Below, in pieces: positions 1,463 through 28,297 of a stretch of DNA of 64,000 nucleotides; within the stretch, counting starts at the first letter, position 1, and each line of letters starts with the position of its first letter. The stretch is taken from positions 26,955 through 90,954 of IMG/VR virus record IMGVR_UViG_3300024518_000876; one strand, given 5' to 3'. Made by a program: the position numbers and the translations under genes. Source of the stretch: a virus. The notes below the pieces were generated by a model, which was not told where the DNA came from, made no database searches, and saw only the letters and a program-made list of their open reading frames with translations.

Positions 1463-1976
1463 CTAACAGCTCTTTTAATGTTCTAGGCGTGTACTCTACT
1501 TGTTCACATGATACACAAATGTACCTCTTGTCATCAACTAGACCAAACCATTTCTTTACTTTATACTCATGGATATGTCCATGAATATTAATATTTATTC
1601 TACCTCTACCAAATTCTCTAGTATGTATCGGCGCGTGTGTAAGAAAGGCTGTTAGCTTTTCAGTTCTAAATCTTTTCTTTAACATACCTAAAACTCCATC
1701 TACATGCTCTAATAGAGTCGGTACATGTTGTCTTTTGTCATGGTTTCCTAGTATTACGTAAATTTTACCATTTAGTTTACTTAAAATAGGATATACAGCA
1801 GATTTTTCCATACTTACATCTCCTAGTATATAAGTAGTATCGTTTTTACCTACAGTAGTATTCCATTTTTTTACTATAAATGCATCTTGTTCTGATGCAT
1901 CTCTAAAACCTCTGTGTTTAGCCATGTTTTCATGCCCAAAATGGAGATCTGCAATAAATCTTGTTGTGTTACTCAT
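1452..1976 (-). CDS. Calcineurin-like metallophosphoesterase
   Basis: DLHFGH, LGD, GNHD, THAP and HGHIH metal-binding motifs in the canonical order. Confidence 0.9.
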   Translation of the reverse strand: MSNTTRFIADLHFGHENMAKHRGFRDASEQDAFIVKKWNTTVGKNDTTYILGDVSMEKSAVYPILSKLNGKIYVILGNHDKRQHVPTLLEHVDGVLGMLKKRFRTEKLTAFLTHAPIHTREFGRGRININIHGHIHEYKVKKWFGLVDDKRYICVSCEQVEYTPRTLKELLDEK

Positions 1977-4238
1977 TTCCTCTTATTTTATTAATAAATT
2001 TAGTTACTCCTTTTAAAGCGGCAGCATCTTTAGGTTTAGGTAATTCTTTAAAATAGTTCACTGCACCATCAAAGTACAATGGACATATAGTACCACCCCC
2101 ACCTTCTCTACCACCTAGTATCTCTAGAAACCTAATATTATCTTTAAAATACTTAATGTCATAACCTTTATAATCTGGTATTTCATGCCTATAAGGACTA
2201 AATAATCCTAATATGACATTAGCATCCCTCTGAGTACTTTTGTTGTCACCTAAGCCATCCATTGTAGGTTTTAACCTGTTGGCTTTAGCATTTTCAACAC
2301 TTTCTTGAGCTGATGCTTGTTGTTGTATAGCTACTGGTATGTAATTATACATATTTCTTAATTTTACAAAATAATCTGAAGATAATTTACTTATACAATC
2401 ACGTAAGTTAAGTCGTTTGCCTTCTAAGCTTTCAGTACTTAATAAACCTATATGATCTACAATACACATTACGTATTCTTCTGGATTATTTGGTTCATAG
2501 TAATCAAACAATTCTGTGTCTTTACCATGAATTTTTACAGTTTTATAAATTTTAGTACCATGCGTTTCTGCATAGCCCCTCATAAATTTATATATACCTG
2601 TAGGATTTCTAATATCATCAATAAATGTAACTATTTTTTCTACCTGTTTAAAATACTCTTCATATTTTAAGATAAGTTCTAATTTATCTTTTGATAATAC
2701 TTTATCTGCTTTAGTACTCCTTAAATCTTTAGGTGCAATTCTCACACCTTCTTTAATATAAAGTAAATTACTAAAAGCAGATCTCATCTTCTCTTCTTTA
2801 GACATTTCTAAAGAGAAATAAAAGATTTTTAATTTAATATTTAATTTCTTATCTAACACTTGTTGTATAGCATTATATAAGAATAACCAATCAGTTATTT
2901 GCGTTTTCAGCGTTTGTTACTACAAAATTATAAATTTAAAAAGGAATACATTCGTCGCGTTGTAATTCCTCTTGTAAAGCAGCTAGTTGTTCAGTAAGTC
3001 TTTCTTTTTTTAATCCTATATATGACATTACTGTAAAAAAGTCAAACTCATCGGCGTAACTAATATTATTTCTAACAATATAATCATTGTAGTCATAAAA
3101 AAGATAATCTACTAATACTCTACGCTGAGGTTCTTCGCTAAGTCTGTGTTTTGTAGTTCTCCAACCATTTGTATGAAATACTATTTTACGTACATCAGGA
3201 CAATATATAAGCATTTTTCCTGTTTGTTTCAATCCAATAATACTATAAATCACTCTTAGTAATTGTTGTGGAGAAACATTTTCAAAATAAGTGTTACTGA
3301 TTTTTAATAAATCACCAAAAGATCTTGCTTTACCCGCTTTACATTGCATTCTTTTTAAATGGTAGTTTTTTGCAGAGTAGGTAGGAGGAAACTGTGTCCA
3401 ACCTTCTACTTCTCTATTATAAAGAGCAGTTATAAAAGTTTTTAAGTTTGCCCTATCTTCTTCGCTAGGCAAATCTGCCGGTCTAATATATATTTTTTCC
3501 ATTTTTATTTTTTATAATTTTGTGATTAAGTCATTTCTGCTTAATTCTACATGTCACCATGTAGCTCGGACTATCTCATCAACCTATTCCAATATGCATC
3601 ATCTTTTATACCATTACAATCTGTACAGACGTCAATAGTTTTAAACCCATAATGAGGGTCTTTACATACACATTTTGATTTTATAGGTTGCTCCTTGTTA
3701 GTCTCTACACCGTTTTGTTCAAATAGTTCATAAATTAAATTAGAAGCTCTAACACATAAATCAGGACTTGCTCCATAATATTTTGCATTAGCTAATTCTA
3801 ATGTAATTTCATCTACTTCTTTCTCAATTGACGGCACGGGATTGTCTTTAAGCTTAACAATTTTGTTAGCTACTCTAGTAGCTTCATCTACCTTAGATGC
3901 TTCTGTCATTCTAGTACAGTTGTCTAAGGACTGTTTAATAATTTCATAAACTTCTGTCATTTTGTTCGTATTAAAGGGTTTCCCCGTTAGCTATTATTTT
4001 AATAACCCCCTTGTTAGGGATTCAGAGTTTTCTGTACATATCTCTACATACAGGGGCAAATTCTACCCACTTTACTGTTGGCTGTTATTAGATAGTATTT
4101 ACCTTGTTCTATACCTGGAATTTCATTCTCAAATCTAGGTAATCCCCAAGGTAAGCAGTTGATTTTACCAGAAAGGATTCGTTCCCTTCTTTCTATCAAA
4201 TCATCATACACTCTATTAAATAAACTATTTTCCTTCAT
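1969..4238 (-). CDS. dnaB: DnaB-like (SF4) replicative helicase, spliced: exon 1 4238-4065, exon 2 2907-1969 (about 370 aa)
   Basis: Joining GGT(4067-4065) to AAA(2907-2905) restores Walker A ...YLITANSKVG|KTQITDW... in frame with FYFSLEMS, CIVDHIGLL (Walker B) and QRDANVILGL; both ORF-track fragments join in frame. Confidence 0.9.
2936..3502 (-). CDS. Intron-encoded protein of unknown function (188 aa), looped out of the P9 extension
   Basis: ORF lies wholly inside the intron, enclosed by a perfect 13-bp stem (3511-3523 with 2922-2934); no LAGLIDADG, GIY-YIG or HNH motif seen by eye. Confidence 0.8.
   Translation of the reverse strand: MEKIYIRPADLPSEEDRANLKTFITALYNREVEGWTQFPPTYSAKNYHLKRMQCKAGKARSFGDLLKISNTYFENVSPQQLLRVIYSIIGLKQTGKMLIYCPDVRKIVFHTNGWRTTKHRLSEEPQRRVLVDYLFYDYNDYIVRNNISYADEFDFFTVMSYIGLKKERLTEQLAALQEELQRDECIPF
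3571..3960 (-). CDS. Putative intron-encoded protein (129 aa) overlapping the ribozyme core, with C-terminal CxC...CxxC
   Basis: 390-nt open frame in AT-rich DNA with an A-rich leader (AACAAAATG); the stop codon UAG is the 3' strand of P7. Confidence 0.55.
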   Translation of the reverse strand: MTEVYEIIKQSLDNCTRMTEASKVDEATRVANKIVKLKDNPVPSIEKEVDEITLELANAKYYGASPDLCVRASNLIYELFEQNGVETNKEQPIKSKCVCKDPHYGFKTIDVCTDCNGIKDDAYWNRLMR

Positions 4239-4255
4239 ATTATTTGTTTTTTAAA

Positions 4256-4852
4256 CTAGCTTACTTCACTAGTCCAGTCATCATCTGTAATTTCTATATC
4301 TATTTCTTCTATAAATGCAGATAATCTAGATGATTCTTCTTTACCTTCTTTTTTAAATATGAAATAATCAGCACGCTGTAAATATCTATAACTTCCATTA
4401 AATGTCTTAATATAAATATCACATGCTTTTAGTATATCTTCAAAGGTGTATTCTGGATTTTCTGCAATCCATCTTTTTAGCTTGTCTGTACAAGCTTGTT
4501 TTGCTCCCATAGCTCCGGGAGCGAGCCCTTTCCATTTATTTCTAAATGTTTGAACATTACCTTCTAACATATTATTCACATGTCTTGCACTTACTTTCTT
4601 TACGAGTTTTTCATCTGCAGGAGGACATTGTGATTCCATGTCTTCTAATAATTGTTCACTTTTTTCACGAAGTAACATTTGTACTTCATTATTTTCTGTA
4701 TAAATTTTAATAAACTGTTTTGCTTGTAATCCTTTGTAAGTGTTACTTACATCATCATACTTTAATTCAGGATATTTAATTTTATACAAACATAACACTT
4801 CATTTATAGAAAGGTCTAAATCTTCAATATATTTTATATTAATACTTAGCAT
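4256..4852 (-). CDS. Putative replication initiator / helicase loader-like protein
   Basis: Lies directly upstream of the helicase; helical C-terminal domain with YLQRADYFIFK and an acidic tail, resembling the conserved crAss-like gene at this position (recalled, not searched). Confidence 0.5.
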   Translation of the reverse strand: MLSINIKYIEDLDLSINEVLCLYKIKYPELKYDDVSNTYKGLQAKQFIKIYTENNEVQMLLREKSEQLLEDMESQCPPADEKLVKKVSARHVNNMLEGNVQTFRNKWKGLAPGAMGAKQACTDKLKRWIAENPEYTFEDILKACDIYIKTFNGSYRYLQRADYFIFKKEGKEESSRLSAFIEEIDIEITDDDWTSEVS

Positions 4853-8847: not shown

Positions 8848-8861
8848 ATTAATTTGTTTAG

Positions 8862-25894: not shown

Positions 25895-28297
25895 ATGGGA
25901 AGAATTAATAATTCAGGACAACCTCCACAAAGGTTGGCATATAAAAGTAAGACTAAAAAGTGGCGTAAAGATAACGTAGAATTTGCAGATAAACATAGTT
26001 TTTATCATAGTGAAAGTGTACGCCAAACTTTAAAAAATAAAATAGTTAACCTCAATTTATACAATGGAATTGTGGATGTGCAAGATATGACACATGTAGT
26101 TAACCCACATAGTATAGAAGCTGACTTTGTACCAGATAATATACCTCATCATCCAATAGCTGTACCTAAAATAGATTTACTAGTAGGAGAACAAGCTAAA
26201 AGAAGGTTTGATTGGTCTGTTATAGTAACTAATTCAGATGCTATTAGTAAAAAAGAAGAAGATAAAAAGAAAATGCTTCAAGGTAAAATTACTGAATTTT
26301 TACAAAGTAATTATGAAAATGAAGAACTAGAAGCCAAAATGAAAGGTTTGCAAAAATACATGAAGTATGAATGGCAAGACTTACGTGAAAGAATGGCTAA
26401 CCAAATTTTAAAGCATTATTGGGCAGAGCAGAACTTTTCTAAGATGTTTACTAATGGGTTTAAGAATGCTTTGATAATGGCAGAAGAAACTTACCAAGTA
26501 GGTGTAGAACACGGCGAACCTTTTGCTAAAATGCTAAACCCATTAAAAGTACATGCGGTAAGAAGCGGAAATTCAGATAAAATAGAAGATTCTAATATTA
26601 TAATAGTAGAAGACCACTGGAGTACAGGAAAAATCATAGATGTGTACCACGATGAGTTAAAACCATCAGATGTAGATAAAATAATGGAATATACTACTAC
26701 TTCCGGTAGTGGAAGTTACGACGATGATGATAGTAACCATACTTTGTTAAGAGATGGAGCAGATGAGTTAATAGGTTCTTATTTAAATATAGCAGAGCTA
26801 AATGGACATTACTTTTCATCTGATTACACAGATACAGATGGTAATATGAGAGTATTACAAGTATTTTGGAAAAGTCTTAAAAAAATTAAAAAAGTAAAGT
26901 ATTATGATGAAAGTGGAGAAGTACAATATAAAATACGTTCTGAAGAATATATAGAAGATAAAGATTTAGGAGAAGAGTCTACTTCTTTATGGGTTAATGA
27001 ATGGTGGGAAGGTACTATGATTGGAAAAGATATTTTCTTAAATATGAAACCTCGTAGTATTCAATACAATAAAATAAATAATCCTTCTTATTGTCATCCG
27101 GGCATAATTGGACAAATATATAACACTAATCAAGGTAGAGCTATATCCTTAATGGATAGAATGAAAAACTATCAGTATTTATATGATGCAGTTTGGGACA
27201 GATTAAATAAAGCTATTGCTAGTAATCATGGTAAAATTCTTGAATTAGATATAGCTAAAATACCAGAAAACTGGGAAATTGATAAATGGTTACACTTTGC
27301 AGTAGTAAATAAAATTGCAGTAATGGATTCTTTTAAAGAAGGTAATCATGGGGCAGCTACTGGTAAACTTGCAGGATCTATGAATACTGTAGGGGGGAGA
27401 GCTATTGATTTAGATACTGGTAATTACATACAACAGCACCAACAGCTTTTGGAGTTTATTAAAAATGAAATGGGTGAAATAGCTGGAGTATCTGCACAAA
27501 GACAAGGACAAATCTCAAATAGAGAAACTGTAGGAGGTGTAGAAAGATCAGTTAATCAGTCATCTCATATTACAGAGTATTGGTTTTTACAACATGAGTC
27601 TGTTAAGGTAAGAGTACTATCTGCTTTTTTAGAAACAGCTAAGTTTGCTTTAAAAGGAAAAAACAAAAAAGCACAGTACATATTAGATGACCAATCTATC
27701 GCTATGTTAGAGATGGATGGAAATCAATTTGCTGAGTGTGATTATGGTTTAGTTGTGACTAATAGTACTAAGACAATGGAGTTAGAACAGATGTTAAAAC
27801 AATCTGCACAAGCATTTATGCAAAATGGAGGTTCTATGTCTGTACTAATGGATATTATGTTTGCACCATCATTAATGGATATGCGTCGCAAGTTAGAAAC
27901 TGCAGAAGAAGAAGCACATCAAAGATCTCAAGAAGCTCAACAAGCACAAGCTAAACAAGCTGAAGCTCAGATGCAAGCTCAAATGCAAGCAGAACAAGCT
28001 AAGATGCAGTTGGAACAAGCTAAGTTACAATTAGATGAAGCTAATAACATTAGAGACAATGAGACTAGGATTAGAATGAAAGAAATGGATGTTATGAATA
28101 GTGGAGAAGAAGTAGAAGCAACTGAAGCACCATTAGATAGAGAGAAGTTTGAGAATGATAAAAACAATTTTAATCAAGAGTTAGAGCTAAAGAAAGAAAA
28201 ACAAAGAGACGATAGAAAAAAACAACAAGATGATGTAAAGTTAAAAGAAAAAGCATTAACTGTGCAAAAACAAAGTAAACAAAATAGCAATAGCTAA
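25895..28297 (+). CDS. Portal protein (likely start MGRINN at 25895)
   Basis: About 800 aa after TerL; NEWWEG, AGVSAQRQGQI and ETVGGVERSV segments and a Q/A-rich coiled-coil tail as in crAss-like portals (recalled). Confidence 0.82.
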   Translation: MGRINNSGQPPQRLAYKSKTKKWRKDNVEFADKHSFYHSESVRQTLKNKIVNLNLYNGIVDVQDMTHVVNPHSIEADFVPDNIPHHPIAVPKIDLLVGEQAKRRFDWSVIVTNSDAISKKEEDKKKMLQGKITEFLQSNYENEELEAKMKGLQKYMKYEWQDLRERMANQILKHYWAEQNFSKMFTNGFKNALIMAEETYQVGVEHGEPFAKMLNPLKVHAVRSGNSDKIEDSNIIIVEDHWSTGKIIDVYHDELKPSDVDKIMEYTTTSGSGSYDDDDSNHTLLRDGADELIGSYLNIAELNGHYFSSDYTDTDGNMRVLQVFWKSLKKIKKVKYYDESGEVQYKIRSEEYIEDKDLGEESTSLWVNEWWEGTMIGKDIFLNMKPRSIQYNKINNPSYCHPGIIGQIYNTNQGRAISLMDRMKNYQYLYDAVWDRLNKAIASNHGKILELDIAKIPENWEIDKWLHFAVVNKIAVMDSFKEGNHGAATGKLAGSMNTVGGRAIDLDTGNYIQQHQQLLEFIKNEMGEIAGVSAQRQGQISNRETVGGVERSVNQSSHITEYWFLQHESVKVRVLSAFLETAKFALKGKNKKAQYILDDQSIAMLEMDGNQFAECDYGLVVTNSTKTMELEQMLKQSAQAFMQNGGSMSVLMDIMFAPSLMDMRRKLETAEEEAHQRSQEAQQAQAKQAEAQMQAQMQAEQAKMQLEQAKLQLDEANNIRDNETRIRMKEMDVMNSGEEVEATEAPLDREKFENDKNNFNQELELKKEKQRDDRKKQQDDVKLKEKALTVQKQSKQNSNS

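Follow-up and report, generated by a model that had tools for sequence, protein, structure and literature searches.

An open reading frame threaded through the catalytic core of a predicted group I intron in the helicase gene of a crAss-like phage

We describe here a 129-codon open reading frame (ORF) that runs in frame through the catalytic core of a predicted group I intron, which in turn splits the DnaB-like helicase gene of a marine phage. The locus lies in a 64,000-nt stretch of DNA, positions 26,955 to 90,954 of the IMG/VR virus record IMGVR_UViG_3300024518_000876, and this whole stretch is called the window below. The source record is a complete 103.5-kb crAss-like phage of sea water origin, whose nearest named relative is Cellulophaga phage phi14:2. 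Every feature of the helicase/intron locus is on the minus strand, and the coordinates are collected in Table 1. Our analyses suggest that the threaded ORF is a genuine gene that shares its nucleotides with the ribozyme, and that it is conserved as such in a family of homologous introns.

The split helicase gene and its intron

The insertion point falls in the Walker A codons of the DnaB-like helicase. Exons 1 and 2 join in frame to encode a helicase of 371 aa, whose alignment to gp85 of Bacteroides phage crAss001, an uninterrupted protein gene, has no gap at the junction (ANSKVG/KTQITD, the stroke marking the junction, versus ANQKVGKSKLAD), and the genome of the source phage holds a single copy of the intron. 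Two other explanations of the interruption were discarded: an intein, since the exon-1 frame meets a stop (UAG 4046-4044) 18 nt inside the insert, and translational bypass, since the splice-site pairings and the covariation of the core account for the gap. Phage phi14:2 (NC_021806, L001 3995-7720) carries a homologous intron of about 2.7 kb at the same helicase site, with four ORFs (g025-g028); in its record g024, which corresponds to exon 1, is a hypothetical protein and g029 is DnaB, and the intron is not annotated.

The Rfam group I model (RF00028) found no match in the window even at E<=10, and none at the gathering score in 11 homologous loci, plausibly due to the inserts of 97-119 nt in L5, L6 and L8 and to the extra hairpins between P3 and P4. 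Because Rfam gave no match, the structure of the intron was tested by comparison with homologues. These were taken from the phi14:2 intron and from two scans of viral contigs, one anchored on a 15-mer of element R and the other on a 16-mer of element Q, neither anchor depending on the reading frame, and they amount to a DNA-anchored sample of about 39 distinct homologous introns.

Compensatory changes occur in P1 with its guide, P3, P4, P7 and P8 across 21-38 homologues. In P1 the guide tracks the exon in four other host-gene contexts (GGAU/GUCC, GGCGU/GCGCC, CCGU/GCGG; GGGU/GCCC in the window), and P3 covaries at three of its four positions (CG/UA/UG, UA/AU and AU/CG/UG; 21 sequences). The variants seen in P4 (36 sequences) are ACGGGG/UCCCGU, ACGAGG/UCUCGU (twice), ACGGCG/CGCCGU and ACGGUG/UACCGU; those in P7 are GACUA/UAGUC, GACUG/CAGUC (10 sequences), GGCCA/UGGUC and GACUU/AAGUC; and those in P8 are AACCUA/UAGGUU, UACCUG/CAGGUA, AUCUUA/UAAGAU and AUCCUG/UAGGAU. 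Covarying stems are also present in P2, P5, P9 and P9.1, the changes in P5 (CCAUUA/UAAUGG, UCAAU/GUUGA) being judged by eye, and P6 varies among homologues between G.U and G-C only. The elements follow the core order P3-P4-P5-P6-P7-P3'-P8-P7', backed by covariation. By these comparisons the insert 4064-2908 is a group I intron, predicted to be self-splicing.

The interval between P3 and P4 is normally a short joining segment in group I introns, and the two hairpins found there are unusual; in relatives (L004, L070, L001), whole cargo genes fill the loop of the second (or first) of them. In P9.1 (hairpin 3524-3545, minus strand) the stems covary and the 9-nt loop, CAGAAAUGA, is invariant, and this loop is probably the partner of a tertiary contact.

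The threaded ORF and its protein family

The ORF opens at an AUG in L5 behind an A-rich leader, uaauacgaacaaaAUG, the closest upstream in-frame stop being a UAG. With a prime marking the 3' strand of a helix, it then passes from L5 through P5', J5/4, P4', P6, L6, P6', J6/7, P7, P3', P8, L8, P8' and J8/7 to the UAG of P7'. The original prediction, made from the letters of the window, had placed the ORF here, with its start in the loop between P and Q, its path through Q, R, P3 and P8 and its stop on the UAG of P7'; all of this agrees with the coordinates of the elements, as do the open frame of the expanded L5, L6 and L8, the A-rich leader at the start and the CVC...CTDC motif encoded in L8. 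Over the same stretch, 14 and 24 stops fall in the other two frames. The 541-nt core has a maximal stop-free run of 139 codons, a length reached by none of 5000 dinucleotide shuffles (mean 43, maximum 105), and a chance ORF was discarded on the basis of these shuffles and of the conservation of the frame.

Across the homologous introns, the distance from Q to R is divisible by three in all 39 cases, over a range of 27-195 nt and at least 14 length classes, and the stretch is stop-free in the ORF frame in 38 of them, with 1-11 stops in the other frames. The test proposed with the original prediction, namely whether homologues keep the frame open and whether loop indels are multiples of three, thus comes out in its favour, the lengths in question being those of L6. 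Of 26 homologues with L8 loops of 40-300 nt, 25 have this loop open in the ORF frame, against 5 and 2 in the other frames. All complete homologues have an in-frame AUG ahead of Q, often merely 5-9 codons upstream and directly 5' of the P5 3' strand, even where L5 holds a separate cargo gene. At the other end, the ORF extends to P8'/J8-7/P7' in 27 of 33 homologues, and 21 terminate on the UAG of P8'; the conserved UAGGUUGAUGAGAUAG that makes up these elements has a stop in each of the three frames, so termination there is automatic. In homologues L079 and L059, LAGLIDADG-like genes (e.g. ...GMVLGDSYI...) are found in L8 and the small ORF ends a few codons past NGVET.

Among more distant introns, which have the P4 motif in common and a different P6, L113 and L128 are out of frame and contain stops, and they serve as a small natural control; the P4-anchored scan returned mostly other sequences, few of them usable as an outgroup. 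The compact introns L113, L128 and L109 carry the motifs AGCUAACGGGGAAA (P4/J4-5) and GUAGAGACU (P7) with another P6 and without the threaded ORF, and they could serve as an outgroup when the origin of the ORF is dated. The homologous introns interrupt a SNF2/DEAD-type helicase, a ribonucleotide reductase, a second helicase site and a primase-like gene. Since the threaded ORF is present in introns of other host genes, it belongs to a mobile intron family and not to the control of the helicase, and the timing switch for helicase production that the original prediction had considered was dropped in its helicase-specific form.

Strong frame-specific purifying selection is seen in the Cys4 module of L8, which is common to the window and four relatives with different L5 and L6. 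Its ratio of nonsynonymous to synonymous substitution rates (dN/dS) is 0.08-0.38 in pairwise comparisons and 0.15 when pooled in the ORF frame, versus 1.37 and 1.33 off frame, and the cysteines (CxC-x13-CxxC) are invariant in the modules of five relatives. This knuckle is probably metal-binding. A search with the Cys4 tail alone returned copies in these introns only, and the ESM Atlas gave sub-threshold matches, some of them to Zn_Ribbon clusters; Pfam gave no hit. Codon usage points in the same direction: the score per codon of the ORF is -3.73 in frame and -4.74 and -5.25 off frame, the genes of the phage scoring -3.62 +/- 0.14; that of the L5 part is -3.69 versus -4.78 and -5.43; and all three loop parts match the long genes of the phage in frame and not off frame. 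AlphaFold, run with 33 family sequences, predicts for the L6-coded part an alpha-hairpin of two helices with a predicted local distance difference test score (pLDDT) of 87-93, the flanking linkers encoded by the core being disordered.

In a search of 1.84 billion representatives with a profile of the segment from Q to R, 270 clusters (50% identity) matched at E<=1e-3. The typical member reads M-x(4-7)-[DG]NPVPS[LI]D-x(35-50)-LQNGVET[ND]KEQP followed by a tail of 20-70 residues. The linker peptides encoded by the core, K-D-N-P-V-P-S-(I/L)-D and (L)-Q-N-G-V-E-T-N-K-E-Q-P, are near-invariant, about half of the members start 4-10 residues ahead of DNPVPS, and at least four cysteines are present in 62 of 141 tails. 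No homing nuclease domain, whether LAGLIDADG, GIY-YIG, HNH, His-Cys box, PD-(D/E)xK or EDxHD, nor any other nuclease domain was found by Pfam among 112 family members, and a tblastn search with the threaded ORF had no match in GenBank phages. In a few members a GNAT or FGE-sulfatase domain is fused in frame upstream of DNPVPS...NGVET (P0030, 216 aa; P0079, 339 aa; L014, 1228-1431 region), and for this reason enzyme cargo in L5 appears to be read through into the core.

In the alignment of database relatives, the L5, L6 and L8 parts assort independently. The N-terminal 38 residues of the window protein recur near-unchanged beside several unrelated L6 segments, and its Cys4 tail recurs beside unrelated L5 and L6. 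Contigs from environmental RNA libraries (X19-X21), about 95% identical to the window, have either unrelated sequence from the P8 5' strand (3684) or L6 replaced at 3718-3827. Because the modules swap exactly at the P6 and P8 boundaries, the conserved helices would be the recombination joints, and we infer that the loops have been traded between introns by recombination at these helices, the proteins being mosaics.

Downstream of P9.1, a 13-bp stem (3523-3511/2934-2922) loops out a passenger ORF of 188 aa. Neither Pfam nor PHROGs gave a match for it, and phi14:2 g028, which occupies the same position, is not similar to it. Elsewhere in the window, a full-length transfer-messenger RNA gene is found at 8859-9236 on the minus strand (Rfam RF00023, 58 bits, E 3e-20).

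Table 1. Features of the helicase/intron locus, in coordinates of the window, in the direction of the minus strand
Feature	Position	Strand	Details
Helicase exon 1	4065-4238	-	58 codons, C-terminal ...ITANSKVG; ORF list, PHROG 19 DnaB-like match, colinear with crAss001 gp85
Group I intron (predicted self-splicing), 1157 nt	2908-4064	-	U (4065) precedes the 5' splice site, terminal G2908; covariation; junction confirmed by comparison with intron-less homologue
Internal guide sequence GCCC	4054-4057	-	P1 with exon GGGU 4068-4065; U4065 pairs as U.G
P2 hairpin	4032-4053	-	Contains the exon-1 frame stop; homologue stems covary, GUAA loop
P3 5' strand CUCU	4024-4027	-	Covaries with GGAG 3694-3691, 21 sequences
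Two extra hairpins between P3 5' strand and P4	3989-4019	-	Judged by eye from covarying homologue stems
P4 5' strand ACGGGG (element P)	3982-3987	-	Covaries with 3841-3836, 36 sequences
P5 5' strand CUUUAA	3971-3976	-	Partner UUAAAG 3851-3846
L5, 119 nt	3852-3970	-	Holds the AUG and first 36 codons, helical N-terminal module, near-unchanged in relatives with different L6/L8
Threaded ORF, 129 codons	3571-3960	-	AUG 3960-3958 in L5, stop UAG 3573-3571
P5 3', J5/4, P4 3' (element Q), P6 5'	3831-3851	-	Read as codons LKDNPVP
P5 3' strand	3846-3851	-	
P4 3' strand	3836-3841	-	DNPVP codons
P6 5' strand	3831-3835	-	
L6, 117 nt	3714-3830	-	39 codons; predicted alpha-hairpin module
P6 3', J6/7, P7 5' (element R), P3 3', P8 5'	3684-3713	-	Read as codons NGVETNKEQP
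P6 3' strand	3709-3713	-	
P7 5' strand	3699-3703	-	GVET codons
P3 3' strand	3691-3694	-	
P8 5' strand	3684-3689	-	
L8, 97 nt	3587-3683	-	Cys4 module CxC-x13-CxxC (CVC...CTDC)
P8 3' UAGGUU, J8/7 GAUGAGA, P7 3' UAGUC	3569-3586	-	P7 and P8 covariation
P8 3' strand	3581-3586	-	
P7 3' strand UAGUC	3569-3573	-	Its first three bases are the ORF stop
P9 (GUGA loop) and P9.1	3524-3564	-	P9.1 has conserved loop CAGAAAUGA
13-bp stem looping out the passenger ORF	2922-3523	-	188-aa ORF 3502-2936
Helicase exon 2	1969-2907	-	N-terminal KTQITDW...

A gene interleaved with a ribozyme, and the alternatives

We propose that a real protein-coding gene, the threaded ORF, is interleaved here with a self-splicing group I ribozyme, a reading to which we give a probability of roughly 0.78 on the strength of the sequence comparisons. 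The suggestion of the original prediction that a non-nuclease protein is dual-coded with the ribozyme core is backed by the conservation of the frame, by the selection on L8 and by the lack of a nuclease in the 112 members. In the layout shown by the sequence, a single AUG in L5 opens the frame, and the strands P5', P4', P6, P6', P7, P3' and P8 double as codons for the two linker peptides. Each expanded loop carries one protein module, namely a helical N-terminal segment in L5, the predicted alpha-hairpin in L6 and the CxC...CxxC knuckle in L8, and the three-frame stops of P8'/J8-7/P7' close the ORF. Judging from this geometry, a ribosome on the ORF would have to melt P5, P4, P6, P7, P3 and P8. 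Since the ribosome would unwind the core helices, translation and the catalytic fold should be mutually exclusive on one RNA molecule, and translation would most likely take place on the excised intron or on a subset of the precursors. As a guess, the product may bind nucleic acid or metal and act as a small accessory protein, either for the intron, in splicing or mobility, or for the phage.

Several observations weigh against this proposal. Splicing should be hindered when the core is translated, which is a cost, and the protein function is not universal in the family, because the minimal homologue L094 encodes a 26-residue peptide made of core codons only. In L6, the pooled dN/dS of eight independent pairs is 0.44, versus 0.56 and 0.83 off frame, and that of the window and its closest L6 relative is about 1.06; L6 is kept open, and by these values its amino-acid sequence is only weakly constrained. 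Folding of L5, L6 and L8 is slightly better than that of shuffled sequences (z -2.0 to -2.3), which means that a constraint at the RNA level co-exists with coding; this excess fits loops that close on themselves as RNA while coding. The AlphaFold model of the full-length 129-aa protein is poor (pLDDT 55) and unreliable in the Cys4 part, the confident 61-residue alpha-hairpin model had no Foldseek match in the PDB at E<=0.001, and Pfam and PHROGs gave nothing above noise for the threaded ORF protein. The contigs of four marine metatranscriptome runs, compared with positions 2400-4500, showed nothing decisive on translation of the ORF. In contigs of relatives, where L6 or L8 is exchanged, exon 1 runs on into the intron, and no exon-exon joint was seen in the contigs of these runs, where DNA carry-over is possible; because of this possible carry-over, the contigs say nothing on splicing or translation.

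A wider version of the proposal, which we put forward tentatively as a possibility, is that the ribozyme core works as an expression scaffold. The fixed AUG of L5 and the stop of P8'/P7' would allow any in-frame insert in L5, L6 or L8 to be expressed within one mosaic protein, the helices serving as linker codons and recombination joints, and the passage of the ribosome would couple the output of protein to the folding or splicing state of the intron, as a chaperone or a timer. If this were true, a catalytic RNA would be the base of a naturally occurring system that shuffles modules of proteins.

Selection could instead maintain the transit of ribosomes and not the protein. The ribosome would strip and re-set the core, and in this way either guard it against misfolding, as a chaperone does, or delay or time splicing, with the peptides largely incidental, and the switch of the original prediction would be one version of this idea. 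Minimal relatives such as L094, which with its 26 residues retains the AUG and an open frame, are consistent with it, as are the conserved place of the AUG just 5' of the P5 3' strand and the weak constraint on the amino acids of L6. The stop, too, always lies at P8'/J8-7/P7', but this position is automatic given the three-frame stops and is no evidence of design. Ribosome transit leaves unexplained the strong purifying selection on the frame of the L8 Cys4 module and its invariant cysteines; the tails with at least four cysteines (62 of 141) and the confident alpha-hairpin predicted for the L6 part also weigh against it, and we consider it unlikely. The possibility that the frame is an untranslated by-product, persisting by chance, by recent common descent or by constraints on the RNA alone, could draw on the folding of the loops and on the conservation of Q and R as RNA. 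However, RNA constraints have no three-base periodicity, and under them one would not expect in-frame lengths in 39 of 39 homologues over at least 14 classes, 38 of 39 stop-free stretches in an AT-rich background, substitutions biased to third positions and phage-like codon usage; relatives outside the subfamily do lose the frame. We find this explanation scarcely credible.

The original prediction had also mentioned core creep, the extension of endonuclease genes into intron cores. Under this explanation the ORF would be a remnant, or the DNA-binding part, of a homing endonuclease gene that grew from a loop into the core, and it would serve homing jointly with a nuclease encoded elsewhere in the intron. 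Endonuclease genes are known to overlap the core, by as much as 81 nt among the examples listed, and the zinc-finger DNA-binding domain of I-TevI overlaps the td core (PMC3073962); Cys-rich tails are frequent in our family, and relatives have LAGLIDADG-like genes in L8 or P9. The fit is nevertheless poor. The ORF overlaps the core with no parent endonuclease gene in a loop, it spans the whole core from its own AUG in L5 and is not the extension of a loop gene, and in minimal relatives it consists of core codons only, with no loop module, although fusions with N-terminal GNAT or FGE-sulfatase cargo do exist. Neither a nuclease nor a known DNA-binding module was found among the 112 members, the ORF is present with or without another gene in the intron, and the modules are independent of the insertion site, introns at the helicase site having at least five different L8 tails. 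Core creep is in our view distinctly improbable as the source of this ORF, and a protein-coding gene interleaved with the ribozyme remains the reading that we favour.

Comparison with known introns

According to work on bacterial group I introns, ribosomes must stay out of the core for splicing to occur, and the exon frame is stopped early; passenger genes reside in peripheral loops, often with sequestered start sites. The family described here would break this rule of ribosome exclusion in at least 39 introns by DNA and in 270 protein clusters, with its own start codon and with nearly every catalytic helix crossed. If the ORF is translated, it would be a tractable natural case of one sequence selected as ribozyme and protein together, it would raise directly the question of how a single molecule accommodates both translation and RNA catalysis, and it would show that group I introns can carry cargo other than endonucleases. 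These points can be addressed at the bench, because the cultured relative phi14:2 has the same arrangement.

We found no report in the literature of a free-standing non-nuclease ORF that threads a whole core and is conserved across a family of phage introns. The nearest precedent is core creep, as in I-TevI of the T4 td intron and in the LSU intron of Synechococcus lividus, where codons also double as ribozyme helices and are thus under a dual constraint as protein and RNA. The overlaps compiled by Edgell, Chalamcharla and Belfort (2011; PMC3073962) concern endonuclease genes of bacterial and phage introns and measure 9-81 nt at the end of a gene borne in a loop. In contrast, all core strands from P5' to P7' are covered by the present ORF, which starts at an AUG of its own in L5 and codes for no nuclease; it is conserved family-wide and is built of swappable loop modules. 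In organelles, core sequence is read as part of endonuclease or maturase ORFs that are fused to the exon upstream (PMC8393795), so that there too ribosomes traverse the intron core to reach the coding part; however, those ORFs encode LAGLIDADG or GIY-YIG endonucleases or maturases from the start of the exon, whereas here the start is internal to the ribozyme and the products are small non-nuclease mosaics.

Similarities are also seen with the group I introns that phages carry in genes of DNA metabolism (T4 td, nrdB and nrdD, SPO1, Twort, and those of crAss-like phages; PMC7886860). Like the present intron, these are inserted where a conserved replication gene encodes a catalytic motif, and they share with it the stop of the exon frame just inside the intron and the passenger gene looped out from P9. 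The genomic study of crAss-like phages mentions introns solely through their endonuclease domains (PMC7886860). The passenger genes of these introns lie wholly or almost wholly within one peripheral loop, unlike the threaded ORF, and the family described here, with its two extra hairpins between P3 and P4, is missed by the Rfam group I model. Within phi14:2, the counterpart of the threaded ORF is g027 (YP_008242251.2, hypothetical protein; L001 5838-6065), which from Q onwards follows the same frame across R as far as the UAG of P8'; in sequence, neither its L6 module nor its L8 module is related to the one in the window, and three further ORFs are present in its intron.

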